Shown here: one piece after another, positions 2,844 to 45,364 of the stretch
Layout of the letters: each line of letters begins with the position of its first letter
How positions within the stretch are numbered: position 1 is the first letter of the stretch
NCBI GenBank assembly: GCA_964016885.1
Contig: OZ024741.1
Coordinates: 108,500,001-108,564,000, forward strand
Direction of reading: 5' to 3'
DNA length: 64,000 bases
Source: Eledone cirrhosa
Taxonomy: Eukaryota
Program-made: the position numbers and the translations under genes
Notes under the pieces: generated by a model
Told to the model about the DNA's origin: nothing
Seen by the model: the letters and a program-made list of their open reading frames with translations, nothing else
The model's database searches: none

Positions 2844-3034
2844 AATTGTTTCTACGTTTGGCACAAGGCCAGCAATTATCTCAGTGTATTACTGGTACTT
2901 TATTTTATCGACCCCGTAAGGATGAAAGGCAAAGTTAACCTCGGCGGGATTTGAACTGAGACCGTAAAGGGACGTAACTATGCTGGAAAGCATGGCGTCC
3001 GGCCCTCTACCGATACTGCCAATCCATCGCCCTA
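2844..3034 (-). mobile_element. tRNA-derived SINE, same family
   Basis: Full-length copy with A/B boxes and the shared 3' tail; ATTACATAAT on both flanks. Confidence 0.9.
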
Positions 3035-6949: not shown

Positions 6950-7088
6950 AATTGTTTCTACTTTTGGCGCAAGGCCAGCAATTACACAGTACATTACTGG
7001 TACTTTATTTTATCGACCCCCGTAAGGATGAAAGGCAAAGTTAACCTCGGCTGAATTTGAACTCAGACCATAAAGGGCCGTAACTCTA
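6950..7088 (-). mobile_element. tRNA-derived SINE, 5'-truncated
   Basis: Core and 3' tail match the family. Confidence 0.85.
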
Positions 7089-8815: not shown

Positions 8816-9000
8816 AATTGTTTCTACATTAGGCACAAGGCCACCAATTACTCAGTGCATTACTGGTACTTTATTTTATCGACCCCGTAAGGATGAAAGG
8901 CAAAGTAAACCTCGGCGGGATTTGAACTCAGAATGGCAAAGACCGTAACTCTATGCGTCAAAGCATGGCGTCCGACCCTCTACCGATACTGCCAATCCAC
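8816..9000 (-). mobile_element. tRNA-derived SINE
   Basis: A/B boxes, core and tail match the family. Confidence 0.88.
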
Positions 9001-9653
9001 AATAATCCTTGTTTACACTTTCGTTTGTATGTATGCATGTATGTATTTACATACACAGACACGCGCGCACACACACACACACACACACTGATATATACAC
9101 ACACACACACATATATATATATATATGTACATATGTATATATATATGTGTGTGTGTTTGTGTGTATATCAACTCGTTCTTTGTATTTCCCTATTATTTGT
9201 TTGCTTGATTCTCTGTCTCTAATTTCCCTGCTTTAATACCTCCCCCTTCCACTTTATCTTACGTAATAGTCTTCTCTTTCTCCTTCTATTCCCTCTATTC
9301 TCTCTCTTTCTCTCTCCTTCTCTTTATCTCTACCCCCCTCCCCTTATATCTCTCTCACGCTTTGTTGTTTTCTGTGTACTTTTTAATAAGTGCTGCTCTT
9401 TCTCCTACTTCGTTTATTTCTTCCTAACTATCTAACTTTTCCCTTCTAGCATAGACAGTTGACTGACTGGACCGACCCTGCTTCAAAGACAGGGCTCCAT
9501 CGCTACCCCAACGCCGTAATCCACTTTAATAATATTTATCTTCCCGCGCTTTATTCACCCCATTCATTCATCTAAATATCTGCCGCCATGTTTCATTCAT
9601 CTGTCCACACTGATACAGCAGTCTTAATATTTATACAACTTTGCGATGACATT

Positions 9654-9777
9654 TAGTTACGGCCCTTTACGTTTTGAGCTCAAATAGCGACCAGGGAGTT
9701 GATAAATAAAGTACCAGTAGAGTACTGTGGTCGGTTTAATCATCTTTGTTCTTGTGCCTATGTTAGAAAGTATTATT
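9654..9777 (+). mobile_element. Degenerate SINE whose tail runs into the (TAC)n(TAA)n tract holding the Tx1 pair
   Basis: GTTACGGCCCTTTA...GATAAATAAAGTACCAGTA...CTTGTGCCTATGTTAGAAAG. Confidence 0.6.
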
Positions 9778-9782
9778 TATAT

Positions 9783-9814
<32 letters not shown>

Positions 9815-10081
9815 ATAATAATAATAATGATTTCATTTATTGGCCACAAGGGCCGACATATAGGGGACAACACAATAGACAGGGACAGTGGGGGTTTACA
9901 TAGAGATCGAGTAAGTATAAATAACAAAAAAACAAAATAACAATAAAAATACAACAATGAAAGTTCCCCAATAAGAGGGATCACCACCCAGGGTTGACTC
10001 AAGCACCCCACCAGTCCTGAGCCACCCGACGCTCCTAGGGCACCCGGGAAGGGCACCCCTCTCCTTCTCGAATTCACCAGC

Positions 10082-13000
10082 CTACAGGCGCATGATCAGA
10101 GTAGGCCCACTCACGCGGGCCATTCTCGCCACATTCACCCACCTTTCAGTAAATGTACTGGGGGGCAGCACTTCTCTCTCCACCCTCACCTTCCTTTCCA
10201 AGTGAAACTTGAAGAAGTTGATGAGGGATTGGCCGAAGAGAAAAGTGTCTGTCTTCAGTCCTTTCAACCTGGTCCACCATGCAACCTCTTTCGCTACTGC
10301 CACCAGGCAGAGGAAAATTGCCTGCCCTTCCTGACCAAAAGAAGGCGGCGGGTCAATCTTCACTATGGACTCGGACGATAGCCGGATCCGTTCTACACGC
10401 GACAATAGCTGTTCGACATAACCCCACAAGTCAGCAATGCACGGACACTGGACGAGTGCGTGCAGAACGGTTTCGTCGCTCTGCGCGCATCTCGGGCAGG
10501 TTCGTCTGACAGCACTTCCGTGCCTGTAGAGTTTATCCCGAACCGGCAGCGCCCCCCGGTAGCACTGCCAAGCGAGGGATTTATGGAAGTTATCCATCGT
10601 CCCCGGCTCGAAAGTCCTCCGGAACATACTGGTCAGTTCTACTTCGTTGACGCCCAGAGCCTCTCCTAGTACGTCATCGCACTTGCCCTCCACTAATCCT
10701 CTATAGAAATCTTGAGTGGAAGTTCCACTGACCGCATTGCCCACCTTGCAGAGTGCAGTGAGCGCCTGGCAACATTCCAGATGCCAGTCGCCCAGTCTCG
10801 GTCTCTTCTTGACCCAGGACTGCAGCTCAGTCAAAGAGATGAGCTGCGGAAAGGCCCGTCTAACAAACGGCGACCACACCTGTTCACCGTTTAGGCAAAA
10901 TATCTGGAGATGTCGCAGCCTCAGCGCATGTCTGCGCATCATTAGCCACGGCATGCCCAGCCCTCCACGAAGAGGGTGCTGGCAGCAGATGGACCGCCTC
11001 ACCAACGGGACCCGTCCCCTCCACAAAAATTTGAAAAGGAGCCGTTCCAAATTGGCGAGGCGTGGACGGGGGCAAGGCACGACGGTCAGGCGGTAGTAGA
11101 TGACGGACGCGATGTACGCGTTCGCCAACTCCGCCCGCCCTTTCAGTGATAGCTTTCTCTCAGCCCATTTCTGGGTGAGGTTGGCTATCCTGCTCGTCAC
11201 CTCGTCCCAATTCTTATCCACCTGGAGGTCTGGTCCGAACCAAACCCCGAGCAACTTTACCGGTCCGTCTGTCCAGCGCCCAACGACGCTGTTGGACGGC
11301 ATGGACTTGCCTCTCCAGGTGCCGAGCTGCAAGCCCACCGACTTTTCCGGGTTAAGTTTTGCTCCCGTCAACCTTTCATATTCCTCCAAATGGGTGCGGA
11401 TCACCTCGATTTCCGAGGTGTCCGACACCATCACGGTGATGTCGTCCGCATAAGCGGACGCAGCCTTTCTGCGTCCCGGTTCGAGCGGGATGCCCTGCAA
11501 CAACTCCAGCTTCCGCAGTAGAGGCTCAAGAGTCAATACGTACAGAAGTGAGGAGAGAGGGCACCCTTGACGGACCGATCGAGAGATCTGAAACGGTTCC
11601 GAGAGGTGGCCATTAACTTTGACCACCGAGCGGATGCCGCTGTACATTGCAGCGATCCAGCTTCTGAAGACGGGGCCGAAGCCAGCCGCCTCGAGGACAG
11701 CCTCCAAGTACCGATGGTCGACCCTATCGAATGCTTTCGATTGATTTAAATTGATCAGAGCCCCACCGAAGCCAGGTTTGCACCCAACCCTCTCTATGAT
11801 GTATCGCATGAGGTGGAGGTTGTCGTGTATGGACCTGGTCGGGATTGCGCAAGTTTGCGCCTCCCCAACCAAATCTTTGACGACAAGCGCCAACCTTTTC
11901 GCTAACACCTTGGCCAAAATCTTAAACTCTGTGTTGAGCAGGGTTATGGGCCTGAAATTATCTAGTGTGTCCCTCTTGTTCTCGTCTTTCCTTATCAGCG
12001 TCACTACGCCACGGCTCACAGAACTGGGAATGCTCCCGTTCTGCTGCCAGTTGCAGTAGAGCGCTTCGAGGAGATCGGAGAACAAGTCTGGCATATTTAC
12101 GTAAAGCTCGTAGGGCAGACCATCCAAACCGGGTGACTTGCGACTCGAGCAGCCGACAAGGGCGTCCTGAATTTCGGCTGATGTTATCGGCTCTTCGCAG
12201 CGCTCAGCGTCGGCCGTCGAGAGGCGTGGCAAGCCGTCGAGGTAGGGACTGAAGTCCGCCGCCGTCTCCGACTCACCCATCCTCCCGAACAATCGAGCAA
12301 AGTGCTGGCGAAAGGCCTCACACATCTGCTTGGAATCGCTCAGTTCGTGTCCATCTCGATCCGTCAAAGACCGAATTGTGGTTTTATTTCCACGCTGCGT
12401 CTCTGCAAAGCGAGCCCATCGGGCAGCTTTGCTTCCCTCGTTCCTCAGAGCACGCGCCTTAGCTCTGACAATGCAACCTTCGTGTTTCGCATTGAAGAAA
12501 TGGTCTAGTGCCATTCTCGCCGCTAGCACGTCTGTTGCAATGCCACTACAAATAGCCTCGTCTAACTTAGCTATCAGCCCCTCCTCCTTTCTATTTTTCT
12601 CTATTGCTACTTCTTTGCTAAATCCTATCGAGGTTGCTCTAATCTCTCTTTTGAGTGCCCCCCACCACCTGTTGTTGACAACCCCCCCTGTCAACTTTTG
12701 CTTAACTAAGTTGTTGACCCGGTCCCTGTAAGCTTTACGTGCCGGAAACGACATGTTTAGCTTCCAGTAGCTAGGTCCTAACCTACGTGTCTTATCTAGG
12801 TCGACCATACAGATCACAAGCTTGTGATCTGAATAGGCAACCGTTTTAAAATGTGGACATCCTACACTATTTCTATCTCTTTTCCTAATGAAAATCCTAT
12901 CTATGTACGATCTAGATGACCCTATGCGATTGGTCCAGGTCCATACTGGCGCATTAGGGAAATCTAGTCGGTACCTGTCAGACAGTTGAAACTGGCTGAT

Positions 13001-13501
13001 CAGGTACTTGAGGCTTTTGCACCCCCCGCTCCTATCAGATACTCCCACACAATCCCAGCGTGCTTCTAAGATGCCATTCCAATCCCCTATTAACAGTAAA
13101 GGGCGAGACGTAAGCAGAAAGTTTTCCAGGCGCCTAAAGAAGTCCGGCCGACCGGCCCCAGTAGGGGCGTAGACGGCCACCAGTCTAAAGGCACCACCTT
13201 CGCTATTGCTCACGTCCAGGACCACCAACTTTCCGTCAGGATCCCGGAAGATTGACCTTACCTCGAGATCCAGACATTTCCTAAACAGCACAGCCACTCC
13301 ACCTCCCATTCCCGGCCGACTAACAGATGCAAAGATCTGATAATCGTCGAAAATCGGCGCCAGTGCGCGTGTGTCGGAAATTCTGGTCTCGCTGATGGCA
13401 ATTACATCCATTCCTAGTGACCTGAGGTCGTTGAGCAAGTGACCTTGCTTCCAGGGCGACCCCAGGCCACGAACATTTAAACTTCCTACTCTTATGGCCA
13501 T
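10082..13501 (-). CDS. Tx1 ORF2: AP endonuclease + reverse transcriptase + C-terminal CCHC zinc finger (motif-A Asp mutated to Asn)
   Basis: EN motifs SLNVRGL, ISET, VYAP, GDWN, IDRI, SDH; RT motifs SPGLDG, FRPITLLN, LNQSKAFD, RQGCPLS, YADD; CPRC..ETVLHALVQC. Confidence 0.95.
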   Translation of the reverse strand: MAIRVGSLNVRGLGSPWKQGHLLNDLRSLGMDVIAISETRISDTRALAPIFDDYQIFASVSRPGMGGGVAVLFRKCLDLEVRSIFRDPDGKLVVLDVSNSEGGAFRLVAVYAPTGAGRPDFFRRLENFLLTSRPLLLIGDWNGILEARWDCVGVSDRSGGCKSLKYLISQFQLSDRYRLDFPNAPVWTWTNRIGSSRSYIDRIFIRKRDRNSVGCPHFKTVAYSDHKLVICMVDLDKTRRLGPSYWKLNMSFPARKAYRDRVNNLVKQKLTGGVVNNRWWGALKREIRATSIGFSKEVAIEKNRKEEGLIAKLDEAICSGIATDVLAARMALDHFFNAKHEGCIVRAKARALRNEGSKAARWARFAETQRGNKTTIRSLTDRDGHELSDSKQMCEAFRQHFARLFGRMGESETAADFSPYLDGLPRLSTADAERCEEPITSAEIQDALVGCSSRKSPGLDGLPYELYVNMPDLFSDLLEALYCNWQQNGSIPSSVSRGVVTLIRKDENKRDTLDNFRPITLLNTEFKILAKVLAKRLALVVKDLVGEAQTCAIPTRSIHDNLHLMRYIIERVGCKPGFGGALINLNQSKAFDRVDHRYLEAVLEAAGFGPVFRSWIAAMYSGIRSVVKVNGHLSEPFQISRSVRQGCPLSSLLYVLTLEPLLRKLELLQGIPLEPGRRKAASAYADDITVMVSDTSEIEVIRTHLEEYERLTGAKLNPEKSVGLQLGTWRGKSMPSNSVVGRWTDGPVKLLGVWFGPDLQVDKNWDEVTSRIANLTQKWAERKLSLKGRAELANAYIASVIYYRLTVVPCPRPRLANLERLLFKFLWRGRVPLVRRSICCQHPLRGGLGMPWLMMRRHALRLRHLQIFCLNGEQVWSPFVRRAFPQLISLTELQSWVKKRPRLGDWHLECCQALTALCKVGNAVSGTSTQDFYRGLVEGKCDDVLGEALGVNEVELTSMFRRTFEPGTMDNFHKSLAWQCYRGALPVRDKLYRHGSAVRRTCPRCAQSDETVLHALVQCPCIADLWGYVEQLLSRVERIRLSSESIVKIDPPPSFGQEGQAIFLCLVAVAKEVAWWTRLKGLKTDTFLFGQSLINFFKFHLERKVRVEREVLPPSTFTERWVNVARMARVSGPTLIMRL

Positions 13502-13530
13502 GCTGGCAGGATGAATGGGAGAGGAAAGGT

Positions 13531-15441
13531 TTACTTACCTTCCGGGGTCTTGTGAAGGTCGGGTGGTTCGACCTCCATGGTTTGTGGGGTTTCTTTTGGG
13601 AACCCCTTTAATAGTCTTGACGTGGGTTTTACGTTCGGGGTTCCCACATCCCGAGGAAAGCTCTTTCGAATTTCTTTGTATGAAGCGAGCGACATTCGCA
13701 TCAGAAGCAAATTATCTGGTACGCGAAATGTGCTCGCTTCAAATGTTTCCCCGTCTTTTTCGATGTTTGTGCTTCGTGCTACATGGGCCATCAATTCCTT
13801 GTTGGCCCTTCTGGCAAGCACGAAGTTTTTAATGTTTTGTTGCTCGGGTTTTATTTGTTCGTGTGATTGTGGTGGTGATAGCTTTGTTAGTGTTGTTTCT
13901 ATTGTGTCTGCGTTTGTTGTGGGTGGGGTGTCTGTAGTTTCTGATGTTTGTGTGTCTATTTGTTCTTGTGTCTGTTTAGCTTGTTTGCGTTTGGGGGATT
14001 TTGGTGGTTGTGTTGGTGATGCTGTGGGGAAAATGTTTGTGTGGGTGATGTGTGTATTTTTTTTTGTGGGGGTGTCTGTGCTTTGTGGATTTCTTTTTTT
14101 TTTGTGTTTTGTTTTTTGTATTTTGGGGGACTTTGGTTTTCCCTCATCTTCACTGCTGGAGGATGAGGGGTCTGTGGCTGTGAGCGTGTTTGTGTCTGAG
14201 TGAGTGTTTATGTTCTTGTTCGTGTGTGTATTTTGGGGGGGAGGGGGAATGGGAGAGCTTTCCTCGTTTCCCCCCTGGGTGTGCAATTTTGGTGGTTCCA
14301 TTGTTGACGGTGTTGCTGGTGGTCCTTGTCCCGGCGTCGCCAGCAGTGGAATCTTTCGACCCCTTGCGCTTTTCGGCAGTTGAGGGCAGAAGGCTCGCAA
14401 GTGTGTCGTTTCCCCACAAAGGAAACAATGCGGCCTTTTGCCCTCAGTCATTATATGCAACACCCTCCCGTTTTGGAGGCGGATGTGGTCCGGGATTGCT
14501 TTTACGTTTTCGGGTCTGATTTGGAGCAGTATCTCCAGATCAACCCCGGACCAGTCGTCCCTGGCAGTTCTCGTTGCCTCTACCGGGACTGTATCCGTTC
14601 CTTCCACGATTACGCAACCCAGGAGCCACCACATATCAAGTCCTGGTGGAATCCTGGGAATGCGCACACGTGCTATTCGTTTTCCCATGTGGGAGGGGTA
14701 CATTATAACCTTGCTGGTTTTGCAAGGGGTCATTGAATGCTTCACAGCGAGGGCTTCAGACTTGAACAGCACCGAAACGGTGCCGTATTGCCTGCCCCTC
14801 TCTATGAAGTCTGTGTCCTCTCTGATGTATTTCAGTGCGGCTTCTATGTCAGCTTGGGCGATTATCGCTGCCCTCTTTGTCTCTACTGAGATGCATCTGA
14901 AATGCACCGTTCTTTTTTCCACTGCCTCAATGGCTTCTGCCGGGACAGTTAAGTTTGCCCAGGTCTGCTCTTGATTTATGATTTTCCAGGCCTGGGCCAA
15001 CTTTTCCTCTCTGTTGGTTAAGTCGATGCTGTAGCATGGTCTCCTTTTAGCCGCTGCCACAGCAGCGAAGGTGTTCTTGTTGGTGTTGTCACTGTTGTTG
15101 TTCTTGTTGGTGTTGCTGCTGCTATTGCTGTTGTTGTTCTCCCCTGTGTCGTGGTTACCCTCTGTGTTGTTGGCCTTGTTGGTGCTGTTGCTGTCGCTAC
15201 TATTACTCTCTGTGCTGTTCGTTTTGTTGGTGCTCTCGCTATTACCACCTTCTGCGCTGTTCGGCTTGTTGGTGTTGGTGTTGTCGCTGTTACCACCTTC
15301 CGCGCCGCTCGGCCCGTTGGTGCTGGCACTGTCGCTGCTCACATTCGTGCTGGTGGCGCTCCTCACCTCACCTCTCCTCTCAACGCTCAAGTCGCCGTTG
15401 CACGACAGCAGACCCGCCTCTAGGGGGCGTGGCTCCGCCAT
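13531..15441 (-). CDS. Tx1 ORF1 gag-like protein (636 aa) with CCHC zinc knuckle
   Basis: Likely start AAACATGG (MAEPRP); N/S/T-rich N-terminus, TFAAVAAA motif, CFLCGETTHLRAFC knuckle; stops 29 nt before the ORF2 ATG. Confidence 0.9.
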   Translation of the reverse strand: MAEPRPLEAGLLSCNGDLSVERRGEVRSATSTNVSSDSASTNGPSGAEGGNSDNTNTNKPNSAEGGNSESTNKTNSTESNSSDSNSTNKANNTEGNHDTGENNNSNSSSNTNKNNNSDNTNKNTFAAVAAAKRRPCYSIDLTNREEKLAQAWKIINQEQTWANLTVPAEAIEAVEKRTVHFRCISVETKRAAIIAQADIEAALKYIREDTDFIERGRQYGTVSVLFKSEALAVKHSMTPCKTSKVIMYPSHMGKRIARVRIPRIPPGLDMWWLLGCVIVEGTDTVPVEATRTARDDWSGVDLEILLQIRPENVKAIPDHIRLQNGRVLHIMTEGKRPHCFLCGETTHLRAFCPQLPKSARGRKIPLLATPGQGPPATPSTMEPPKLHTQGGNEESSPIPPPPQNTHTNKNINTHSDTNTLTATDPSSSSSEDEGKPKSPKIQKTKHKKKRNPQSTDTPTKKNTHITHTNIFPTASPTQPPKSPKRKQAKQTQEQIDTQTSETTDTPPTTNADTIETTLTKLSPPQSHEQIKPEQQNIKNFVLARRANKELMAHVARSTNIEKDGETFEASTFRVPDNLLLMRMSLASYKEIRKSFPRDVGTPNVKPTSRLLKGFPKETPQTMEVEPPDLHKTPEGK

Positions 15442-15979
15442 GTTTTTTTGAGAAAAAAAGTTTTTTTTTTTCAAAATAAAGTTCAAATATTTGGGCCAAA
15501 AGGCCCAAATATTATGAGTTATTCCTTCACAGGATACAAATTAATGTCTTATAATGCTTCAGCGGTACAAAAAATAAACAATTCTCTACAATTAATCCTC
15601 AAAAATTGCTTACTCACGGAGCTTCAAAAAACGTACATCCACTTTCGTCAATAATAATAATAATAATGATTTCATTTATTGGCCACAAGGGCCGACATAT
15701 AGGGGACAACACAATAGACAGGGACAGTGGGGGTTTACATAGAGATCGAGTAAGTATAAATAACAAAAAAACAAAAACAAAATAACAATAAAAATACACC
15801 AATGAAAGTTCCCCAATAAGAGGGATCACCACCCAGGGTTGACTCAAGCACCCCACCAGTCCTGAGCCACCCGACGCTCCTAGGGCACCCGGGAAGGGCA
15901 CCCCTCTCCTTCTCGAATTCACCAGCCTACAGGCGCATGATCAGAGTAGGCCCACTCACGCGGGCCATTCTCGCCACAT

Positions 15980-18900
15980 TCACCCACCTTTCAGTAAATG
16001 TACTGGGGGCAGCACTTCTCTCTCCACCCTCACCTTCCTTTCCAAGTGAAACTTGAAGAAGTTGATGAGGGATTGGCCGAAGAGAAAAGTGTCTGTCTTC
16101 AGTCCTTTCAACCTGGTCCACCATGCAACCTCTTTCGCTACTGCCACCAGGCAGAGGAAAATTGCCTGCCCTTCCTGACCAAAAGAAGGCGGCGGGTCAA
16201 TCTTCACTATGGACTCGGACGATAGCCGGATCCGTTCTACACGCGACAATAGCTGTTCGACATAACCCCACAAGTCAGCAATGCACGGACACTGGACGAG
16301 TGCGTGCAGAACGGTTTCGTCGCTCTGCGCGCATCTCGGGCAGGTTCGTCTGACAGCACTTCCGTGCCTGTAGAGTTTATCCCGAACCGGCAGCGCCCCC
16401 CGGTAGCACTGCCAAGCGAGGGATTTCTGGAAGTTATCCATCGTCCCCGGCTCGAAAGTCCTCCGGAACATACTGGTCAGTTCTACTTCGTTGACGCCCA
16501 GAGCCTCTCCTAGTACGTCATCGCACTTGCCCTCCACTAATCCTCTATAGAAATCTTGAGTGGAAGTTCCACTGACCGCATTGCCCACCTTGCAGAGTGC
16601 AGTGAGCGCCTGGCAACATTCCAGATGCCAGTCGCCCAGTCTCGGTCTCTTCTTGACCCAGGACTGCAGCTCAGTCAAAGAGATGAGCTGCGGAAAGGCC
16701 CGTCTAACAAACGGCGACCACACCTGTTCACCGTTTAGGCAAAATATCTGGAGATGTCGCAGCCTCAGCGCATGTCTGCGCATCATTAGCCACGGCATGC
16801 CCAGCCCTCCACGAAGAGGGTGCTGGCAGCAGATGGACCGCCTCACCAACGGGACCCGTCCCCTCCACAAAAATTTGAAAAGGAGCCGTTCCAAATTGGC
16901 GAGGCGTGGACGGGGGCAAGGCACGACGGTCAGGCGGTAGTAGATGACGGACGCGATGTACGCGTTCGCCACCTCCGCCCGCCCTTTCAGTGATAGCTTT
17001 CTCTCAGCCCATTTCTGGGTGAGGTTGGCTATCCTGCTCGTCACCTCGTCCCAATTCTTATCCACCTGGAGGTCTGGTCCGAACCAAACCCCGAGCAACT
17101 TTACCGGTCCGTCTGTCCAGCGCCCAACGACGCTGTTGGACGGCATGGACTTGCCTCTCCAGGTGCCGAGCTGCAAGCCCACCGACTTTTCCGGGTTAAG
17201 TTTTGCTCCCGTCAACCTTTCATATTCCTCCAAATGGGTGCGGATCACCTCGATTTCCGAGGTGTCCGACACCATCACGGTGATGTCGTCCGCATAAGCG
17301 GACGCAGCCTTTCTACGTCCCGGTTCGAGCGGGATGCCCTGCAACAACTCCAGCTTCCGCAGTAGAGGCTCAAGAGTCAATACGTACAGAAGTGAGGAGA
17401 GAGGGCACCCTTGACGGACCGATCGAGAGATCTGAAACGGTTCCGAGAGGTGGCCATTAACTTTGACCACCGAGCGGATGCCGCTGTACATTGCAGCGAT
17501 CCAGCTTCTGAAGACGGGGCCGAAGCCAGCCGCCTCGAGGACAGCCTCCAAGTACCGATGGTCGACCCTATCGAATGCTTTCGATTGATCTAAATTGATC
17601 AGAGCCCCACCGAAGCCAGGTTTGCACCCAACCCTCTCTATGATGTATCGCATGAGGTGGAGGTTGTCGTGTATGGACCTGGTCGGGATTGCGCAAGTTT
17701 GCGCCTCCCCAACCAAATCTTTGACGACAAGCGCCAACCTTTTCGCTAACACCTTGGCCAAAATCTTAAACTCTGTGTTGAGCAGGGTTATGGGCCTGAA
17801 ATTATCTAGTGTGTCCCTCTTGTTCTCGTCTTTCCTTATCAGCGTCACTACGCCACGGCTCACAGAACTGGGAATGCTCCCGTTCTGCTGCCAGTTGCAG
17901 TAGAGCGCTTCGAGGAGATCGGAGAACAAGTCTGGCATATTTACGTAAAGCTCGTAGGGCAGACCATCCAAACCGGGTGACTTGCGACTCGAGCAGCCGA
18001 CAAGGGCGTCCTGAATTTCGGCTGATGTTATCGGCTCTTCGCAGCGCTCAGCGTCGGCCGTCGAGAGGCGTGGCAAGCCGTCGAGGTAGGGACTGAAGTC
18101 CGCCGCCATCTCCGACTCACCCATCCTCCCGAACAATCGAGCAAAGTGCTGGCGAAAGGCCTCACACATCTGCTTGGAATCGCTCAGTTCGTGTCCATCT
18201 CGATCCGTCAAAGACCGAATTGTGGTTTTATTTCCACGCTGCGTCTCTGCAAAGCGAGCCCATCGGGCAGCTTTGGTTCCCTCGTTCCTCAGAGCACGCG
18301 CCTTAGCTCTGACAATGCAACCTTCGTGTTTCGCATTGAAGAAATGGTCTAGTGCCATTCTCGCCGCTAGCACGTCTGTTGCAATGCCACTACAAATAGC
18401 CTCGTCTAACTTAGCTATCAGCCCCTCCTCTTTTCTATTTTTCTCTATTGCTACTTCTTTGCTAAATCCTATCGAGGTTGCTCTAATCTCTCTTTTGAGT
18501 GCCCCCCACCACCTGTTGTTGACAACCCCCCCTGTCAACTTTTGCTTAACTAAGTTGTTGACCCGGTCCCTGTAAGCTTTACGTGCCGGAAACGATATGT
18601 TTAGCTTCCAGTAGCTAGGTCCTAACCTACGTGTCTTATCTAGGTCGACCATACAGATCACAAGCTTGTGATCTGAATAGGCAACCGTTTTAAAATGTGG
18701 ACATCCTACACTATTTCTATCTCTTTTCCTAATGAAAATCCTATCTATGTACGATCTAGATGACCCTATGCGATTGGTCCAGGTCCATACTGGCGCATTA
18801 GGGAAATCTAGTCGGTACCTGTCAGACAGTTGAAACTGGCTGATCAGGTACTTGAGGCTTTTGCACCCCCCGCTCCTATCAGATACTCCCACACAATCCC

Positions 18901-19345
18901 AGCGTGCTTCTAAGATGCCATTCCAATCCCCTATTAACAGTAAAGGGCGAGACGTAAGCAGAAAGTTTTCCAGGCGCCTAAAGAAGTCCGGCCGACCGGC
19001 CCCAGTAGGGGCGTAGACGGCCACCAGTCTAAAGGCACCACCTTCGCTATTGCTCACGTCCAGGACCACCAACTTTCCGTCAGGATCCCGGAAGATTGAC
19101 CTTACCTCGAGATCCAGACATTTCCTAAACAGCACAGCCACTCCACCTCCCATTCCCGGCCGACTAACAGATGCAAAGATCTGATAATCGTCGAAAATCG
19201 GCGCCAGTGCGCGTGTGTCGGAAATTCTGGTCTCGCTGATGGCAATTACATCCATTCCTAGTGACCTGAGGTCGTTGAGCAAGTGACCTTGCTTCCAGGG
19301 CGACCCCAGGCCACGAACATTTAAACTTCCTACTCTTATGGCCAT
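15980..19345 (-). CDS. Tx1 ORF2 (EN+RT+CCHC) with intact catalytic motifs and a -1 frameshift near the C-terminus
   Basis: LDQSKAFD and YADD intact; G5 at 16005-16009 versus G6 at 10160-10165 replaces the native C-terminal tail, which continues in another frame to 15927. Confidence 0.93.
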   Translation of the reverse strand: MAIRVGSLNVRGLGSPWKQGHLLNDLRSLGMDVIAISETRISDTRALAPIFDDYQIFASVSRPGMGGGVAVLFRKCLDLEVRSIFRDPDGKLVVLDVSNSEGGAFRLVAVYAPTGAGRPDFFRRLENFLLTSRPLLLIGDWNGILEARWDCVGVSDRSGGCKSLKYLISQFQLSDRYRLDFPNAPVWTWTNRIGSSRSYIDRIFIRKRDRNSVGCPHFKTVAYSDHKLVICMVDLDKTRRLGPSYWKLNISFPARKAYRDRVNNLVKQKLTGGVVNNRWWGALKREIRATSIGFSKEVAIEKNRKEEGLIAKLDEAICSGIATDVLAARMALDHFFNAKHEGCIVRAKARALRNEGTKAARWARFAETQRGNKTTIRSLTDRDGHELSDSKQMCEAFRQHFARLFGRMGESEMAADFSPYLDGLPRLSTADAERCEEPITSAEIQDALVGCSSRKSPGLDGLPYELYVNMPDLFSDLLEALYCNWQQNGSIPSSVSRGVVTLIRKDENKRDTLDNFRPITLLNTEFKILAKVLAKRLALVVKDLVGEAQTCAIPTRSIHDNLHLMRYIIERVGCKPGFGGALINLDQSKAFDRVDHRYLEAVLEAAGFGPVFRSWIAAMYSGIRSVVKVNGHLSEPFQISRSVRQGCPLSSLLYVLTLEPLLRKLELLQGIPLEPGRRKAASAYADDITVMVSDTSEIEVIRTHLEEYERLTGAKLNPEKSVGLQLGTWRGKSMPSNSVVGRWTDGPVKLLGVWFGPDLQVDKNWDEVTSRIANLTQKWAERKLSLKGRAEVANAYIASVIYYRLTVVPCPRPRLANLERLLFKFLWRGRVPLVRRSICCQHPLRGGLGMPWLMMRRHALRLRHLQIFCLNGEQVWSPFVRRAFPQLISLTELQSWVKKRPRLGDWHLECCQALTALCKVGNAVSGTSTQDFYRGLVEGKCDDVLGEALGVNEVELTSMFRRTFEPGTMDNFQKSLAWQCYRGALPVRDKLYRHGSAVRRTCPRCAQSDETVLHALVQCPCIADLWGYVEQLLSRVERIRLSSESIVKIDPPPSFGQEGQAIFLCLVAVAKEVAWWTRLKGLKTDTFLFGQSLINFFKFHLERKVRVEREVLPPVHLLKGG

Positions 19346-19374
19346 GCTGGCAGGATGAATGGGAGAGGAAAGGT

Positions 19375-21285
19375 TTACTTACCTTCCGGGGTCTTGTGAA
19401 GGTCGGGTGGTTCGACCTCCATGGTTTGTGGGGTTTCTTTTGGGAACCCCTTTAATAGTCTTGACGTGGGTTTTACGTTCGGGGTTCCCACATCCCGAGG
19501 AAAGCTCTTTCGAATTTCTTTGTATGAAGCGAGCGACATTCGCATCAGAAGCAAATTATCTGGTACGCGAAATGTGCTCGCTTCAAATGTTTCCCCGTCT
19601 TTTTCGATGTTTGTGCTTCGTGCTACATGGGCCATCAATTCCTTGTTGGCCCTTCTGGCAAGCACGAAGTTTTTAATGTTTTGTTGCTCGGGTTTTATTT
19701 GTTCGTGTGATTGTGGTGGTGATAGCTTTGTTAGTGTTGTTTCTATTGTGTCTGCGTTTGTTGTGGGTGGGGTGTCTGTAGTTTCTGATGTTTGTGTGTC
19801 TATTTGTTCTTGTGTCTGTTTAGCTTGTTTGCGTTTGGGGGATTTTGGTGGTTGTGTTGGTGATGCTGTGGGGAAAATGTTTGTGTGGGTGATGTGTGTA
19901 TTTTTTTTTGTGGGGGTGTCTGTGCTTTGTGGATTTCTTTTTTTTTTGTGTTTTGTTTTTTGTATTTTGGGGGACTTTGGTTTTCCCTCATCTTCACTGC
20001 TGGAGGATGAGGGGTCTGTGGCTGTGAGCGTGTTTGTGTCTGAGTGAGTGTTTATGTTCTTGTTCGTGTGTGTATTTTGGGGGGGAGGGGGAATGGGAGA
20101 GCTTTCCTCGTTTCCCCCCTGGGTGTGCAATTTTGGTGGTTCCATTGTTGACGGTGTTGCTGGTGGTCCTTGTCCCGGCGTCGCCAGCAGTGGAATCTTT
20201 CGACCCCTTGCGCTTTTCGGCAGTTGAGGGCAGAAGGCTCGCAAGTGTGTCGTTTCCCCACAAAGGAAACAATGCGGCCTTTTGCCCTCAGTCATTATAT
20301 GCAACACCCTCCCGTTTTGGAGGCGGATGTGGTCCGGGATTGCTTTTACGTTTTCGGGTCTGATTTGGAGCAGTATCTCCAGATCAACCCCGGACCAGTC
20401 GTCCCTGGCAGTTCTCGTTGCCTCTACCGGGACTGTATCCGTTCCTTCCACGATTACGCAACCCAGGAGCCACCACATATCAAGTCCTGGTGGAATCCTG
20501 GGAATGCGCACACGTGCTATTCGTTTTCCCATGTGGGAGGGGTACATTATAACCTTGCTGGTTTTGCAAGGGGTCATTGAATGCTTCACAGCGAGGGCTT
20601 CAGACTTGAACAGCACCGAAACGGTGCCGTATTGCCTGCCCCTCTCTATGAAGTCTGTGTCCTCTCTGATGTATTTCAGTGCGGCTTCTATGTCAGCTTG
20701 GGCGATTATCGCTGCCCTCTTTGTCTCTACTGAGATGCATCTGAAATGCACCGTTCTTTTTTCCACTGCCTCAATGGCTTCTGCCGGGACAGTTAAGTTT
20801 GCCCAGGTCTGCTCTTGATTTATGATTTTCCAGGCCTGGGCCAACTTTTCCTCTCTGTTGGTTAAGTCGATGCTGTAGCATGGTCTCCTTTTAGCCGCTG
20901 CCACAGCAGCGAAGGTGTTCTTGTTGGTGTTGTCACTGTTGTTGTTCTTGTTGGTGTTGCTGCTGCTATTGCTGTTGTTGTTCTCCCCTGTGTCGTGGTT
21001 ACCCTCTGTGTTGTTGGCCTTGTTGGTGCTGTTGCTGTCGCTACTATTACTCTCTGTGCTGTTCGTTTTGTTGGTGCTCTCGCTATTACCACCTTCTGCG
21101 CTGTTCGGCTTGTTGGTGTTGGTGTTGTCGCTGTTACCACCTTCCGCGCCGCTCGGCCCGTTGGTGCTGGCACTGTCGCTGCTCACATTCGTGCTGGTGG
21201 CGCTCCTCACCTCACCTCTCCTCTCAACGCTCAAGTCGCCGTTGCACGACAGCAGACCCGCCTCTAGGGGGCGTGGCTCCGCCAT
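19375..21285 (-). CDS. Tx1 ORF1 gag-like protein, copy 2
   Basis: Translation identical to copy 1 ORF1. Confidence 0.9.
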   Translation of the reverse strand: MAEPRPLEAGLLSCNGDLSVERRGEVRSATSTNVSSDSASTNGPSGAEGGNSDNTNTNKPNSAEGGNSESTNKTNSTESNSSDSNSTNKANNTEGNHDTGENNNSNSSSNTNKNNNSDNTNKNTFAAVAAAKRRPCYSIDLTNREEKLAQAWKIINQEQTWANLTVPAEAIEAVEKRTVHFRCISVETKRAAIIAQADIEAALKYIREDTDFIERGRQYGTVSVLFKSEALAVKHSMTPCKTSKVIMYPSHMGKRIARVRIPRIPPGLDMWWLLGCVIVEGTDTVPVEATRTARDDWSGVDLEILLQIRPENVKAIPDHIRLQNGRVLHIMTEGKRPHCFLCGETTHLRAFCPQLPKSARGRKIPLLATPGQGPPATPSTMEPPKLHTQGGNEESSPIPPPPQNTHTNKNINTHSDTNTLTATDPSSSSSEDEGKPKSPKIQKTKHKKKRNPQSTDTPTKKNTHITHTNIFPTASPTQPPKSPKRKQAKQTQEQIDTQTSETTDTPPTTNADTIETTLTKLSPPQSHEQIKPEQQNIKNFVLARRANKELMAHVARSTNIEKDGETFEASTFRVPDNLLLMRMSLASYKEIRKSFPRDVGTPNVKPTSRLLKGFPKETPQTMEVEPPDLHKTPEGK

Positions 21286-21511
21286 GTTTTTTTGAGAAAA
21301 AAAGTTTTTTTTTTTCAAAATAAAGTTCAAATATTTGGGCCAAAAGGCCCAAATATTATGAGTTATTCCTTCACAGGATACAAATTAATGTCTTATAATG
21401 CTTCAGCGGTACAAAAAATAAACAATTCTCTACAATTAATCCTCAAAAATTGCTTACTCACGGAGCTTCAAAAAACGTACATCCACTTTCGTCAATAATA
21501 ATAATAATAAT

Positions 21512-22935: not shown

Positions 22936-23517
22936 AATTGTTTCTACTTTTGGCACAAAGCCAGCAATTATCCCAGTGGTGCTTTATTTTATCCACCCCG
23001 AAAGGATGAAATGCAAAGTTATCCTGCGCGGGATTTGAGCTCAGGCCATAAAGAGCCGCAACTCTTTCCTGCAAAGCATGGCGTCCGACCCTCTGCTGAT
23101 ACTGCCAATTTTGATTTAGGCAACAATTTTGGAGTTGGGGAAAGTCGATTAAATCGACACCCCCGTGCGTTACTAGTACTTTTTGTTATCGAATACGTAA
23201 TTATGAAAGGCAAAACTGACATCGGCGGATTTGAAGTCAAAATGTAATGTAAAGGGACGTAACTGTTCGCCGCAAAGCATGTCGTCCTACGTTCTACCTA
23301 TATTGTCAATCAATGACCCTAATATATGTAAATAATAATTGTTTCTACTTTTTGGCACAAGGCCAGCAATTATCCAAGTTCATTACTGGTGCTTTATTTT
23401 ATCGATCCCGTAAGGATGAAAGGCAAAGTTAACCTTGGCGGTATTTGAACTCAGACCATAAAGGGCTGTAACTCTATACTGCAAAGCATGGCGTCCGACC
23501 TTCTACCGATACTGCCA
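22936..23517 (-). mobile_element. Cluster of three tandem SINE copies (~22936-23110, ~23120-23320, 23337-23517)
   Basis: Family core and tail repeated three times in the same orientation. Confidence 0.85.
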
Positions 23518-24947: not shown

Positions 24948-25043
24948 TTAACTTTGCCTTTCAGCCTTACGGGGTCGATAAAATAAAGTACCAGTAATGC
25001 ACTGGGATAATTGCTGGCCTTGTGCCAAAAATAGAAACAATTA
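24948..25043 (+). mobile_element. 5'-truncated SINE
   Basis: Core plus GGCCTTGTGCCAAAAATAGAAACAATT tail. Confidence 0.85.
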
Positions 25044-27023: not shown

Positions 27024-27241
27024 ATGGTTTCTTATATAGGCACAAGGCTATCAATTTTGGAGAAGGGGTGAGTCGATTAAATCAACCCCAGTGCGTGACT
27101 TGTACTTTATTTTATCGACCTTGTAAGGATGACAGGCAACGTTGACCTCGGCGGGATTTGAACTGAGACCGCAAAGGACAGTAACTCTATTCTCCAAAGC
27201 ATGGTGTCCGAACATCTACCGATACTGCAATCTACCGCCCT
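27024..27241 (-). mobile_element. tRNA-derived SINE, longer subfamily
   Basis: A/B boxes, core and an extra GGGGTTGATTTAATCGACTCACCCC segment before the tail. Confidence 0.85.
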
Positions 27242-29299: not shown

Positions 29300-30240
29300 T
29301 TGATCTTTTCTAGTCACCCCAATAGTCAATGCATGTCATGCCGTCTATCATTTTTGTGTTTGACCTATGAGATGCTACAATTTTCATAATACTTTGTTTT
29401 GTGTCGGGAGACCAGAGTGGACAACAGTATTCAAGGTGAGGTGGGGCAAAAGTAGTAAGAAAAGGATAATTGTGTTCATATCATTCGACTACAAAGTTCT
29501 GAGAATCGACGAACACATTGTATGGGCCATATCTAATTTGCTGTTGAGAGTTTCAGTGCATCATCTTTTCCAATGTGCATTAATTCGAATCTATCCCCGT
29601 TCGCCTATTGGATAACCACAAGTAGATATGATTGAAGGCACGTCCGGTCGCTCATTCCATTAATGAACTTCTGGATCTTGGAAACATCTACAAAGATTCT
29701 TATGTTGCTGTGCTTGATGACGCCAGTAATATCAGATATAAATAATTGTTTTTACTTTTGGCACAAGGCCAGCAATTAACCAGTACATTACTGGTACTTT
29801 ATTTTATCGATCCCGTAAGGATGAAAGGCAAAATTAACCTCGGAAACCCAATGTGCCCAGTGCACTGCCTTGTGGAACGCCACTACTGACTTTGGCTGGG
29901 CTGGATTGTACTCCTTCGACTAGACTACAACATTTTGCGCTCTGTTTGTCAGGAGACAGTTGATCCACTGCAGCAACTTTCCAGAGACACCAATGTGTTT
30001 TCAGTAGAATGTCCTGAACAACCCTATCAAAAGCCTTGCTGAAAAAAAGGTAGATGATATCAGTATTGGAGCCCTATCCCAACGCTTTTAAAATTTCATC
30101 CAACGATGCAGGAGCCCACGTTAGGCAGCCCTTCTATTTTGGAACCCATGCTGCTTGGAGTTCAGTAGATTGTTGGTATCAAGAAAGTGAGAAATTCGTG
30201 ATCTCACCGGTCTCTCATATATCTTAATGATATGAGAGTT
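29300..30240 (-). pseudogene. Decayed CR1-like RT fragment interrupted by a SINE fragment (29743-29843)
   Basis: Minus-strand remnants QHGF, FSKAFDRV, SGVPQGSALG, PHLEYCCPLWSP. Confidence 0.75.
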
Positions 30241-30591
30241 ATATGTAATATATAAATATAATAGCCAACTGACAGAGAACGAAGGACAAACACGGAAGGA
30301 GATATGAACTCTTCCATCTAAATATGTATGTAAAAACTAATAATTTTTCTTCCTCTTTTTGTTATTCGCATAAATATGCAGCATAACTACATTATGCATA
30401 TCCGCATCTGAAAAAGCATATAATGCTGAAACCGGTACCATTATTAAATGCAGAAATATCCACTTTATAAATAAATGTTTTGATATTACACTGAAAGAAT
30501 CTCTTCAGCATTTTCTACTGAAAAAAATCTTTTTCCTCTCTACTATATTTGTTTTTTATATATATCAAATCGTATGTTCCTTTTCTACATT

Positions 30592-30701
<110 letters not shown>

Positions 30702-30885
30702 ATATACACGGGTGTGTATGATTGTGTATAAAAGATTATATTAATAAAAGAAATTCCAACCTTGTCTGATTTACTCGTTTTATTTACAATCCTTTAAAAT
30801 TTATAATGGTATTAGAATGAAATAGTATGGTAGAATATTAAATGTTAAGTGTTAATTGAACAAGTACTTTCATGCTTTCGCAATC

Positions 30886-33800
30886 AGCCTCTCCCGGAAG
30901 CTCATCTCTTTCATTGTAGCAATCCCTTGGTGTAGCTTCGTTGGATTGCTTCAAGTTCTGCAATTAGTTTGAGACTGTGGGCCATCACAGCTGACAGCAA
31001 TAGTGCAGTCGCCTGATGACGAAAGTCCTCCAGAGGACCAACATGGTTTCCGAGTCTCTTGTTCTGAATGTCCTCAGAATCCAACCTACCAGCCAACTAC
31101 ATATTGCCATCATTTTGCTGATGTGTGCATGCAACGATGCATCGTCGTTCATCTCAATACCCAGATCCCGTATTGATTTTGAGTCTGGGATTTCGATTCT
31201 TCCTGGACCAATGTACCTTTATTGTGATGGTCCTATATTTCTGGGTTAATAGCGGAGGGCTTGAAACTTACCTGCATTAAATTGCATACTGTTGTTTTCA
31301 GCACATCCGTATATGACATCTACATCATGTTGTACGAGAGTAGCGTCAGTCGGTTTCTTGATTGCATGTGTTACTTTCGTGACATCAGCGTCACTTGTGG
31401 GGGAGACTGTCCGTATTACAGAGGGCATGCCTGAGAGAGCCACCATAACACTAGTCGCTCCAAGATAGTTCCCTGGAGCACGCCGCTTGTGATTGACATT
31501 TCCTTTAAGAGGGCCCTGTTGGCTGCAACGGTCTGGCTTCTCTCTTTTAAGAAGTCATGAAGCCATTCACCTATTTTCCAGCTATTCCCAAGCTACGTAG
31601 TTTGTGACATATCATTCCATGATCAAACTTTTCGAAGGCCGTCACAAAAATCGAGATATATCATATCCACGTTGAACCATCTTATGGCTGTTTGAGTATC
31701 CAGTCATAATGCTTCAGAATCTGCGCAAGACAGCTTCCACTCGGTCGAAACCCTGCTGGGCGTCAGTTAGGATACCATTTTCCTCTTGAAAAGTAATCAA
31801 TTTCCTTCTGATGATTCGTTCCATGAATTTACTGATATGTGACTTCAGGGAGATAGGTCTGTAGTTTTTAACTTCTGCTCTGCTTCCTCCTTTATGGATT
31901 GGACATATGACTTATTTTAGTCTTCCTGGTAGTATACCACTTGCAAGGGATCTTTAGAGGTGGTTTTCGTAATGTTCGCTTGCATGTTTTTAGGAGGATT
32001 GCTCGGAAACTATCACAGCCAGCAGCTGTATTTGATCTCATCTCATGTATGGCTGATATTATATCTTTCACCCTTATATCTATGTAGTTGATGGTTGCCA
32101 TTTCTCTGTGTTATGCAGTTTTGTTAAAGAACTCATCTGGCTTATTTATTTGCATGTGTCTCATTAGACGTATGTAAACACTTATATATTGTTCATGCAG
32201 TACCTCACTTATTCCTTGGTGGTCTGAGGTCAATGAGTCACTTTTATGTAAAAGTTGCGTACTTCACAGTATGCCAAGGTGGTCACTTTTCCAAATTTTA
32301 AGAAGACCTTAGATTTCGTCTTCATGTTTTCTATATCACTGACTTCTCTTTCTGCCTTCTCGTTTTCATGGGAGAGTTTGAGATCAGTTACAATTTGAAA
32401 CAGAGCCTGCTTCAAATGGGATTATTTTATGTTCTGTACTTGTATATGCAGCCGGTTTGAGATCTTTGTTGTTCTCATAGAGTTTCTGTTGTCTCTAGGA
32501 ATAATATGTTTGCGTTTGTTGACCTTTTTTTCTGTGGTAAACCTGGAGCATATAGCCTGTATTATTTCCATGAATTGCTCACATTTTATGTTGACATCTT
32601 TCATAGAGAGATTCTCGATCCAATTTTGCTTCAGGAGCTTCTCCTGAATCCTTTTGCACTTAGCTTTGTGGTAGTTTAATCTGGATAATGAGCGAATGTT
32701 GCCTGTCAGCTGTATATCTAGGGGCTTCCTTGGACTATACTTTATTCCTAGTTCTACTATGTTAGGGTCCGAGAAGATCATTGGTGTCATATTCACATTG
32801 TAAAGGAGCTCAGTGTTATTCGTGAAGCAGAGATCTAGGGTAATCCCACCTCTTGTTGGATGAAGTACCATTTGTTCCATGTAGTCTGTGTTTGTAAGGT
32901 CAAATAGAGATTCTGCCTTTGTTCAAAAGCCGTCATTGCTGAGAGGGGCTGGTCTTCGGGCCATTTGACCTTGGGAAGGTTAGTATCTCCCAGGAGTAGG
33001 ATGGTGAGACTTTGATACAGATTAATTAGCACGTTTTCCGTCTTTCCGTGTTTATCTTCAAATGTATATTCATGACTTGGGACAAATGGTGATCGATATG
33101 TGGTAAATATTACCATTTGCTTTACGTGCATTATCAGCGTATCACATACAATTGGAATGTGACAACAGTACTAATGGTGTGAAATCTTCACGGATGTACA
33201 CATCAACTCCACCATGAGTTCTCTCCCTCCTGTCAGTACGAAATACAACATACAATACATACAAATATGTGTATTTCCGCATCTACTATGCTGGCTGTCA
33301 GGTGAGTTTCAGTTAGTGTCATGCATAATGTTTATTCGCTTGTGGCTAGGTTCCTAAGCTTGGGGATCGTTCACATGTTTGTAAGTTTTAGCAGGCCTCT
33401 GACATTTAGTGATAGCATTGGTCTGACATTTGTGATGTCAGTGGAGGCTGCTGATATGACATTTGCGTGTGTATAAGTTGTGGCCAACCTGGGTCCTTTA
33501 TTTGTGGTGGTCGCAAATATTGTTGTACCTGACTTTGGTTTCGAATTTGATGATGTTAAGTCTGCTTTCTCACAATCGTTTCCGCATGTTTAAAAAGACT
33601 GTGGTTCCGCAGCTACAGGCTGTACTGCTTCCGCATACTGTCTCCTGTGACCATGTGTGCTGTGTTGTTTGCCCATGTTGGTTTTGGTTTGAGTATTTGG
33701 CATGAATTGTTTGGGTGCAGTTTGCATAGAGCATGGGATGGCAAAACTGCTGCTTGTCCCAGCTTCTCCATGCCAGCAGGTCCTTTTCTTGTAGAATTTA

Positions 33801-38823: not shown

Positions 38824-39014
38824 TAGGGCGGTGGATTGGCATTATCGGTAGAGGGTCGGACGCCATACTTTGCAGCAAAGAGTTACGGCCATTTATGGTC
38901 TGAGTTCAAATCCCGCTGAGGTTAACTTTGCCTTTCATGCTTATGGGGTCGATAAAATAAGTACCAGTAATACACTGGGTAATTGCTGGCCTTGTGCCAA
39001 AAGTAGAAACAATT
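38824..39014 (+). mobile_element. Full-length tRNA-derived SINE
   Basis: A/B boxes, core and tail; 14-bp TSD ATTATATATTATGT (38806-38819/39012-39025). Confidence 0.92.
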
Positions 39015-39142: not shown

Positions 39143-39567
39143 AGAGAAAATTGAGGTTGGTAATGGCACATGGAATATATAAGAGACAGAATACTTTTTT
39201 GTGAAAAAACATAATTTTATAAGGTAAGGAAATAATAAAGGGTATAAAAAATGACCGGTTTCGATGGGTCTGCAAAAGCCATCTTTTCAAATGTTGATTA
39301 ATATTAAGAAAAATTAATAATACGAAGAGTTAAAATTTGAGACTTGAAAATTCAAGTATAAAATTCATTGTGGGATTTCATAGCAGTTTTCATCTAGGTA
39401 GCAACAACAGGTTGACTGCTGTGTCCCTTTCTGGTAGTGAATGAGAAGTTATTTGGGGTGTGGGTTATTTTATAAAGGTCAGATTTAGCAATAGCCAGCT
39501 GCTGGTCAGTGAGGGGGTGGAAGCAATATACACACACATACCTTCATCCACACATACATACACATAC

Positions 39568-39614
<47 letters not shown>

Positions 39615-39675
39615 CACACATACATACACACACACATACATATACATACACACACACACACACATATATACACAT

Positions 39676-39740
<65 letters not shown>

Positions 39741-39779
39741 TATATATACATACACATACATCCAGATACACACATACAT

Positions 39780-39865
<86 letters not shown>

Positions 39866-39921
39866 CCCCACACATACATACACACACACATATATATATA
39901 TACATACACACATACAAACAT

Positions 39922-39952
<31 letters not shown>

Positions 39953-40085
39953 CACACATACACACACATATATATACACACACACACACACACACATGCA
40001 TATATATATATATATACACATACGCATACATCCAGATGTATATGTATGTGTATGTATGTGTGGATATACATATACATATATATAC

Positions 40086-40135
<50 letters not shown>

Positions 40136-40555
40136 GTATGTGTATGTATGTGTGGATGAAGGTATGTGTGTGTATATTGCTTCCACCCCCTCACTGACCA
40201 GCAGCTGGCTATTGCTAAATCTGACCTTTATAAAATAACCCACACCCCAAATAACTTCTCATTCACTACCAGAAAGGGACACAGCAGTCAACCTGTTGTT
40301 GCTACCTAGATGAAAACTGCTATGAAATCCCACAATGAATTTTATACTTGAATTTTCAAGTCTCAAATTTTAACTCTTCGTATTATTAATTTTTCTTAAT
40401 ATTAATCAACATTTGAAAAGATGGCTTTTGCAGACCCATCGAAACCGGTCATTTTTTATACCCTTTATTATTTCCTTACCTTATAAAATTATGTTTTTTC
40501 ACAAAAAAGTATTCTGTCTCTTATATATTCCATGTGCCATTACCAACCTCAATTT

Positions 40556-40560
<5 letters not shown>
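39143..40560. repeat. Long inverted repeat (~430-bp arms) with a (CA/TA)n spacer and a variant hammerhead motif in each arm
   Basis: 39143-39575 is the reverse complement of ~40128-40560 with no differences noticed; UUGAAAA-GAUGG..CCAUC-GAAA-CCGG-UC at 40413-40450. Confidence 0.92.
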
Positions 40561-40623
<63 letters not shown>

Positions 40624-42206: not shown

Positions 42207-42216
42207 TACATACATA

Positions 42217-43748: not shown

Positions 43749-43807
<59 letters not shown>

Positions 43808-45325: not shown

Positions 45326-45364
<39 letters not shown>

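Follow-up and report, generated by a model that had tools for sequence, protein, structure and literature searches.

A group of Tx1-type LINEs very probably mobilises an abundant SINE in the genome of Eledone cirrhosa. The SINE and the LINEs have in common both a terminal motif and a landing site that begins ATTAT, and it is this double agreement that points to three Tx1 lineages, here called A, C and D, as the elements that move it. The motif consists of two stem arms around the loop CYTGT, followed after 12-13 nt by the insertion site, and is common to four Tx1 lineages (A-D) and to every SINE subfamily seen. Judging from sequence, the motif, in whatever form it is recognised, probably serves as a handle for the Tx1 ORF2 protein (ORF2p); that the hairpin structure itself is what the reverse transcriptase reads seems to us an evenly balanced proposition. 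We favour the explanation as a whole, in which lineages A, C and D drive the SINE and the motif is likely the ORF2p handle, as the probable one. The window referred to throughout is the whole stretch of 64,000 nucleotides that was analysed (contig OZ024741.1, positions 108,500,001 to 108,564,000).

Two full-length Tx1-type copies of 5.8 kb each lie in the window (Table 1), with 99.7% mutual identity. Their ORF2 matches Pfam families PF03372, PF00078 and PF13966 (zf-RVT), and the best PDB match of the copy 2 protein is human L1 ORF2p (E 2.6e-57, with R2 at E 4.6e-22). The element combines the AP endonuclease, reverse transcriptase and C-terminal zinc finger of an L1-clade non-LTR retrotransposon, and its ORF2 lies far nearer to L1 ORF2p than to R2. 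ORF1 has no match in Pfam. As characterised in PMC5203782, ORF1 of the Tx1 group carries a CCHC zinc knuckle rather than Transposase_22, and our LINE fits that group by its ORF1 knuckle and target preference, a placement by features and not by a tree of named Tx1 references. A search of the 3.0-Gb genome found at least 40 lineage A copies that are identical across the 255-nt 3′ UTR. Within the tandem pair (ORF2s at 10082-13534 and 15980-19378, minus strand), a reverse transcriptase motif reads LNQSK in copy 1 and LDQSK in copy 2, and the ORF2 of copy 2 goes out of frame close to its C-terminus. Elsewhere, too, Tx1 copies nest head-to-tail in one another's ATT flank and form arrays, with lineages mixed in some (A behind C; loci L001, L006, L014, L015, L183, L184, L186, L188 and L197). 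One or more further conserved hairpins lie in the Tx1 3′ UTR at 10010-10060, present in all four lineages and in no SINE. Relatives found outside the E. cirrhosa genome comprise 92 ORF2 homologues and three short, distant metagenome loci, which do not include 3′ ends.

Table 1. Tx1-type LINE and SINE features of the window (positions counted from its first letter)
Feature	Position	Strand	Remarks
Tx1-type LINE copy 1, lineage A	9829-15649	−	full length: 5′ UTR, ORF1, ORF2, 3′ UTR
Tx1-type LINE copy 2	15668-21493	−	full length; head-to-tail with copy 1
Copy 1 terminal mini-hairpin GGCC-CTTGT-GGCC	9842-9854	−	identical in copy 2 at 15681-15693
Copy 1 spacer AATAAAT-GAAATC, hairpin to insertion site	9829-9841	−	contains AATAAA, with no genomic poly(A) after it
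(ATT)5 target repeat behind copy 1	9814-9828	−
(ATT)6 target repeat between the copies	15650-15667
(ATT)6 target repeat before copy 2	21494-21511
Copy 1 ORF2, 1150 aa stop to stop	10082-13534	−	AP endonuclease, reverse transcriptase, C-terminal zinc finger
Copy 1 ORF1	13531-15441	−	CX2CX4HX4C zinc knuckle
Upstream C-rich/G-rich second hairpin	9966-9978	−	kept in 4/4 Tx1 lineages, missing from the SINE
Tx1 lineage B fragment	62253-64000	−	74% identical to A; relatives have the same end motif, then (ATCT)n
Young SINE, full-length copy, 188 nt	52417-52604	−	16-bp target duplication beginning ATTAT
Young SINE, A-like box	52581-52592	−
Young SINE, B box	52516-52525	−
Young SINE, terminal hairpin	52429-52441	−
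Older long-tailed SINE copy	27026-27241	−	end aligns exactly in register with lineages B-D of Tx1
Ancient decayed SINE copy	9600-9780	+	tail-to-tail with Tx1 copy 1; TATGTTA spacer as in the R4/Dong-like internal motif
Further hairpin-bearing SINE ends	2493-2517, 2847-2871, 6953-6977, 8819-8843, 22939-22963, 23340-23365	−
Further hairpin-bearing SINE ends	25015-25039, 38987-39011	+

The SINE is short, non-coding and interspersed, and its copies are 5′-truncated and flanked by target duplications. Of its Pol III boxes, the B box agrees with the consensus and the A box only loosely; ARAGORN and Rfam returned nothing on the SINE, and its central block presumably resembles the Meta-domain. Genome-wide, 127,459 exact young SINE ends were counted. 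Young short-tailed, older long-tailed and ancient copies alike end in GGC-CTTGT-GCC, seven variable letters, GAAA and two letters, and in the youngest subfamily the stem is reduced to 3 bp (TGGC/GCCT in 27 of 30 copies). Among the 30 best-matching copies, which represent the young edge of the family, 22 differ from the column majority by at most 2 nt; the median divergence among 41 near-full copies is 6.5%. Recent activity of Tx1 and SINE thus overlaps, and the age comparison suggested in the earlier note came out in favour of the pairing, with 40 identical lineage A UTRs on one side and these young SINE copies on the other. A sister SINE (window 44131-44234; L278, L129 and L112) has the same head and central block and a longer, different tail that is free of the hairpin, which suggests that it is served by another partner LINE. 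In a 5′-truncated SINE variant (L309, about 2950-3020, minus strand; L122:4841) the spacer is TGGAGTG-GAGA, and the distance from hairpin to end is unchanged. At L077:2240-2450 a Tx1 3′ end is joined straight to a 5′-truncated SINE with no ATT between them, a fusion that is possibly a template jump.

With loci of a second window family and of a zf-RVT search added, a tree of 53 Tx1 copies shows four lineages, each with the end motif. Stems differ among them (A, GGCC/GGCY; B, TGCC or CGCC/GGCW; C, AACC/GGTT; D, AGCC/GGCC); the loop is CTTGT or CCTGT throughout, and the hairpin leads on to AATAAA(T)GAAA plus two letters. A pattern that leaves the stem positions free, and outside which lineage A falls, matched 29,133 Tx1-type ends genome-wide against 12 for the reversed pattern; a hand tally of the first 100 matches listed found the three inner pairs intact in 88, and in 29 the third pair counted from the loop is A-U. 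For lineage A, all 30 fetched copies end identically and then enter ATT repeats of varying length, so the motif is element sequence. Both ends quoted in the earlier note proved exact: the Tx1 end reads GGCC-CTTGT-GGCC-AATAAAT-GAAATC-ATT (9854-9826, minus strand) and the SINE end TGGC-CTTGT-GCCA-AAAGTA-GAAACA-ATT (52441-52414, minus strand).

Perfect 4-bp stems around CTTGT occur eight times in the window, twice at Tx1 ends and six times at SINE ends. The earlier note had described, for the two ends it quoted, a shared loop within compensatory 4-bp stems. The loop is borne out and some compensation is seen, but the conserved stem is 3 bp long: among 11 representatives, the outer (fourth) pair is unpaired in seven, the youngest SINE subfamily among them. 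Next to the loop, the pair is C-G in all 11; the second is C-G in the seven Tx1 and G-C in the four SINE representatives; the third is G-C in nine, A-U in one and unpaired in one. Covariation of the stem across these 11 related rows (0.38) was reached in none of 500 shuffles and exceeds every slid control, and it consists of two double changes, both of which keep the inner 3-bp stem paired. RNAalifold on seven Tx1 3′ UTRs predicts the 3-bp hairpin and another upstream. Isolated hairpins fold at -6.6 and -4.4 kcal/mol, and the ends were no more stable than shuffles (folding z -0.65 to +0.73). The hairpin lay outside the contigs of four RNA runs.

The target site provides the other line of evidence. 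The earlier note had described a similar spacing from the stem to GAAA and ATT; a fixed 12-13 nt to the end was indeed found, but the final ATT already belongs to the target-site duplication, which it opens, and is not element sequence. Among 39 young SINE copies drawn from evenly spaced stretches and the window, 33 are followed by ATTAT (background 0.002), and duplications of at least 10 nt flank 16, against 0.8 for mismatched flanks. The exact young SINE ends counted genome-wide continue in WWWMT; the first 100 listed all have ATTAT, and TATCT follows none. Ends of Tx1 lineages A, C and D are likewise followed by ATTAT (42 of 47), whereas B ends are followed by TATCT (11 of 13; four unassigned ends left out). 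Duplications starting with ATT were found in 18 of 20 lineage A copies. Seventeen of the 20 are full-length copies flanked by ATT repeats at either end, one shows no duplication, one abuts a gap, and one truncated copy has a 15-bp duplication beginning ATTATT outside a microsatellite; since 17 of the 18 duplications are pure (ATT)n, they look the same as a pre-existing or element-borne repeat. At locus L195, a SINE and a lineage A Tx1 are each bracketed by the same duplicated 17-bp site, which reads as two successive insertions. Poly(A) stands behind one of 79 Tx1 ends and none of 268 SINE ends, and because it is nearly absent, poly(A) reading of the mammalian type fails to explain these insertions.

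An ATT tail as such was dropped as evidence of partnership, as a CR1 family ends in (ATT)n too. With that tail shared, only the pattern of duplication discriminates: ATTAT was found in the 5′ flank of none of the 16 resolvable CR1 copies (9 of 25 were unresolvable), and one copy had an offset duplication. A very young CR1-type family (L081-L110, L198-L222), with 40 copies identical over 213 nt, has its own GTGC/GCAC hairpin and (ATT)n and lacks target duplications. Behind Dong A and B come TAA repeats, which is the ATT tract on its opposite strand. At L065, L068, L253 and L309, Dong-type LINEs stand tail-to-tail with Tx1 or SINE ends on opposite strands of one ATT/TAA tract, so that several LINE clades compete for one microsatellite. 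Tx1-SINE chimeras were rejected as single template-jump events: adjacency is frequent, and flanking duplications were unresolvable in seven of seven extended loci.

Which Tx1 lineage is the partner is decided by target rather than by tail. Compared without gaps, the SINE end is in register with lineages B-D, and the nearest in sequence are B (19/25) and D, not A. Lineage B is nevertheless out as the driver: it lands on (ATCT)n, a target found after none of the young SINE ends. As the closest tail match has this other target, the driver among the lineages cannot be told from likeness of tail. The earlier note had named the lineage present in the window as the partner. Its attribution survives for the Tx1 group, through the motif in register, the ATTAT duplications, the lack of poly(A), the concurrent activity and the failure of 11 of 12 other LINE families to match; it needs amending in that the motif spans A-D, the window's own lineage A is not the closest, and the target leaves A, C and D as candidates.

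Other explanations name another partner or none. Chance likeness between two short AT-rich ends is extremely improbable and already largely refuted. Only about 25 nt are at stake and many family pairs were compared, yet over the last 25 nt, anchored at the 3′ end, four SINE copies and seven Tx1 ends agree at 14-19 positions in all 28 comparisons (shuffled mean about 9), against 6-12 in all 36 comparisons with nine other LINE ends, of which one CR1 reached a local z of 3.7 with a single SINE copy; the target site agrees independently. Non-Tx1 ends came from 12 families found through Pfam searches and in 920 kb of evenly spaced DNA; the labels CR1, RTE, Dong/R4 and Ingi are our own, given on the strength of translated frames and typical motifs and not taken from a database. 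When these 3′ ends were aligned to the SINE tail, as the earlier note had proposed, 11 of the 12 families had no match within the last 200 nt. The exception is an R4/Dong-like LINE, whose fit to the older tails equals or exceeds that of Tx1 (z 5.8 for the old tail, z 9.8 for the ancient copy at window 9743-9770, which itself has no significant match to any Tx1 end). The motif has 4,637 exact copies there, and the ancient SINE subfamily (298 exact ends) has the TATGTTA spacer of this LINE. A restriction-endonuclease LINE of this kind may thus have given or once moved the SINE tail before a switch to Tx1 through the GGC/GCC stem; as a donor or captor of the tail it is a doubtful but conceivable candidate, compatible with Tx1 as driver. 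In the strong form, in which it still drives the SINE, the proposal is very improbable. The motif lies 49-52 nt inside the end, within the LINE's own long 3′ UTR hairpin, and in 99 of 100 listed copies it is followed by GACTCT-like sequence; the LINE ends in (CATA)n, whereas the ancient SINE stops at GAAA plus two letters and mostly continues in ATTAT-like sequence; and the young A subfamily is unmatched (z 1.0). A better match in another LINE clade, against which the earlier note had set its proposal, therefore exists for the older tails, but internally and with another landing repeat. R4/Dong-like loci include L291:4928-5057 and L312-L323, with an older decayed copy in the window at about 40615-40700 (minus strand). 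We consider it very improbable that the true, better-matching partner is an unsampled element, such as Hero, R2, L2, a Penelope-like element or another Dong or L1 family. Twelve non-Tx1 families is a limited range, the R4/Dong-like candidate surfaced late, and Hero, R2 and Penelope are active in Octopus vulgaris according to the repeat account of PMC13282606; a PF09004 search for L2-like elements gave no match, its controls being silent too. However, scans for the hairpin with GAAA, one over 967 kb and one over 920 kb of evenly spaced DNA, picked up nothing beyond SINE and Tx1 ends except two strays in the former and one in the latter (three in each control). In 2,250 ends the letter after the loop is neither that of the SINE nor that of Tx1; the first 100 listed resemble point mutants of Tx1 or SINE. 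The combination of a SINE-type stem with AATAAA, sought genome-wide, occurs in no LINE and four times in all, each a SINE point variant.

The alternative with an appreciable, if minority, chance keeps Tx1 as driver and has no structure read: priming would come from AUUAU of the transcript annealing to the nicked target, and the motif would be a linear site for a host RNA-binding or 3′-processing factor, or a relic of template switching. In its favour, the stem is only 3 bp; among 92 full SINE RNAs the predicted inner-pair probability exceeds 0.5 in no more than 7, against 32 of 48 Tx1 UTRs, the hairpin being predicted to be sequestered in the other 85; the string CTTGTG-N9-GAAA stands inside the unrelated R4/Dong-like UTR with the stem absent; and the Tx1 motif adjoins AATAAA. 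Counter to this, the two independent double changes preserve pairing, an exchange of C-G for G-C beside the loop would be unexpected in a linear site, and the spacing to the end is constant though the spacer letters vary. Given the predicted sequestration, a hairpin that acts as handle would have to be freed by a protein or by the folded head. The most elaborate reading is rather unlikely: an animal L1-clade reverse transcriptase would pick its template by a protein-stabilised 3-bp CUUGU hairpin at a fixed 13 nt from where priming starts, poly(A) being absent, and the SINE tail, derived from R4/Dong, would have switched LINE clade through a few point changes that built the hairpin, and then become hugely abundant.

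For the explanation we prefer, in which lineages A, C and D drive the SINE, a sequence of events can be proposed. Tx1 and SINE both end in GAAA plus 2 nt, both lack poly(A), and the duplications around them begin ATTAT. Tx1 ORF2p would nick the strand opposite ATTAT; ORF2p or a recruited factor would bind the mini-hairpin, whose fixed distance would set the start of reverse transcription, while AUU repeats read through into the RNA would anneal to the DNA at the nick. Such read-through would be longer in a Pol II transcript of Tx1 and shorter in a Pol III transcript of the SINE. In every SINE subfamily the loop, GAAA and the spacing are retained and the stem is re-paired, but AATAAA has been lost. 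A point against the explanation is that lineage A occupies longer ATT tracts (median of 5 units, 32 ends) than the SINE does (median of 2, 87 ends).

Two further features of the window lie apart from this pairing: a decayed CR1-like LINE (29322-33252, minus strand) that hosts a 5′-truncated SINE insertion, and long inverted repeats at 39143-40560 and 41771-50927 (569 nt at 94%, 437 nt at 95%), possibly the ends of a DNA transposon.

The octopus tRNA-SINEs OK, OR1 and OR2 were reportedly described by Ohshima and Okada in 1994. They and the MetaSINEs, as outlined in PMC4824008, have tRNA-type promoter boxes, a central conserved block and variable tails, as does our SINE, a likeness of description and not of consensus. 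Membership is there defined by a 66-bp Meta-domain after a tRNA head, and the partner LINEs of MetaSINEs are stated as not known in 2016 (PMC4824008). The eel UnaL2 and zebrafish ZfL2-1/ZfL2-2 pairs treated in PMC4176376 resemble the present case in that only the extreme 3′ end is common, the loop is conserved and the stem exchangeable; they belong to the L2 clade and were shown by experiment, whereas ours is an L1/Tx1-clade pair with a 3-bp stem, known from sequence. Closer in clade are maize LINE1-1_ZM with ZmSINE2/3 (PMC3472496) and Chlamydomonas L1-1_CR with SINEX-3_CR (PMC3747384), where stringency was inferred, as here, from a shared covarying 3′ hairpin. Those pairs share about 50-80 nt, and at least the algal one ends in poly(A) as these two sources present it; the pair described here involves a Tx1 from an animal, shares about 25 nt, lacks poly(A) and has a microsatellite as its target. 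The crocodilian SINEU is, like our SINE, tied to a Tx1 (Tx1-Mar) by its target, with tandem insertions around the duplication, but has snRNA heads and poly(A) tails, and in the account of PMC4494074 no LINE with the SINEU-1 3′ terminus was found; here tail and target agree. The Kibi and Koshi Tx1 families of the same source also insert in simple repeats, (TC)n, (TTC)n, (TTCC)n and (TTTC)n as against (ATT)n and (ATCT)n here, a comparison by description and not by tree. Mammalian L1 and Alu share with our pair the LINE clade, the ORF2 layout and duplications of 10-20 bp, and differ by their dependence on poly(A). For mammalian L1, a role of a 3′ stem-loop is presented in PMC5135761 as a proposal only.

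The literature searched, outside which lie the 58-pair table of PMC3472496 and Repbase, Dfam and SINEBase, yielded no pairing of an octopus SINE with Tx1 and no Tx1 with a terminal hairpin shared with a SINE. The LINE-SINE pairing is real, well supported and of a known kind; its clade and host are new as far as that literature goes, and its putative recognition element is unusually small. SINEs make up 11.6% of the Octopus vulgaris genome, by the figure in PMC13282606. The present analysis names the likely engine of a SINE with well over 127,000 copies, whose partner we did not find in print. If the explanation is true, the Tx1 enzyme would count among those relatives of human L1, rare in animals, that choose their RNA by a tail motif and not by poly(A). 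With its young intact Tx1 copies and natural stem variants, this animal lineage allows the shift of the L1 clade from structure reading to poly(A) reading to be tested directly, and should the protein-stabilised hairpin hold, E. cirrhosa would offer a living animal model for the transition from stringent to relaxed L1 elements.
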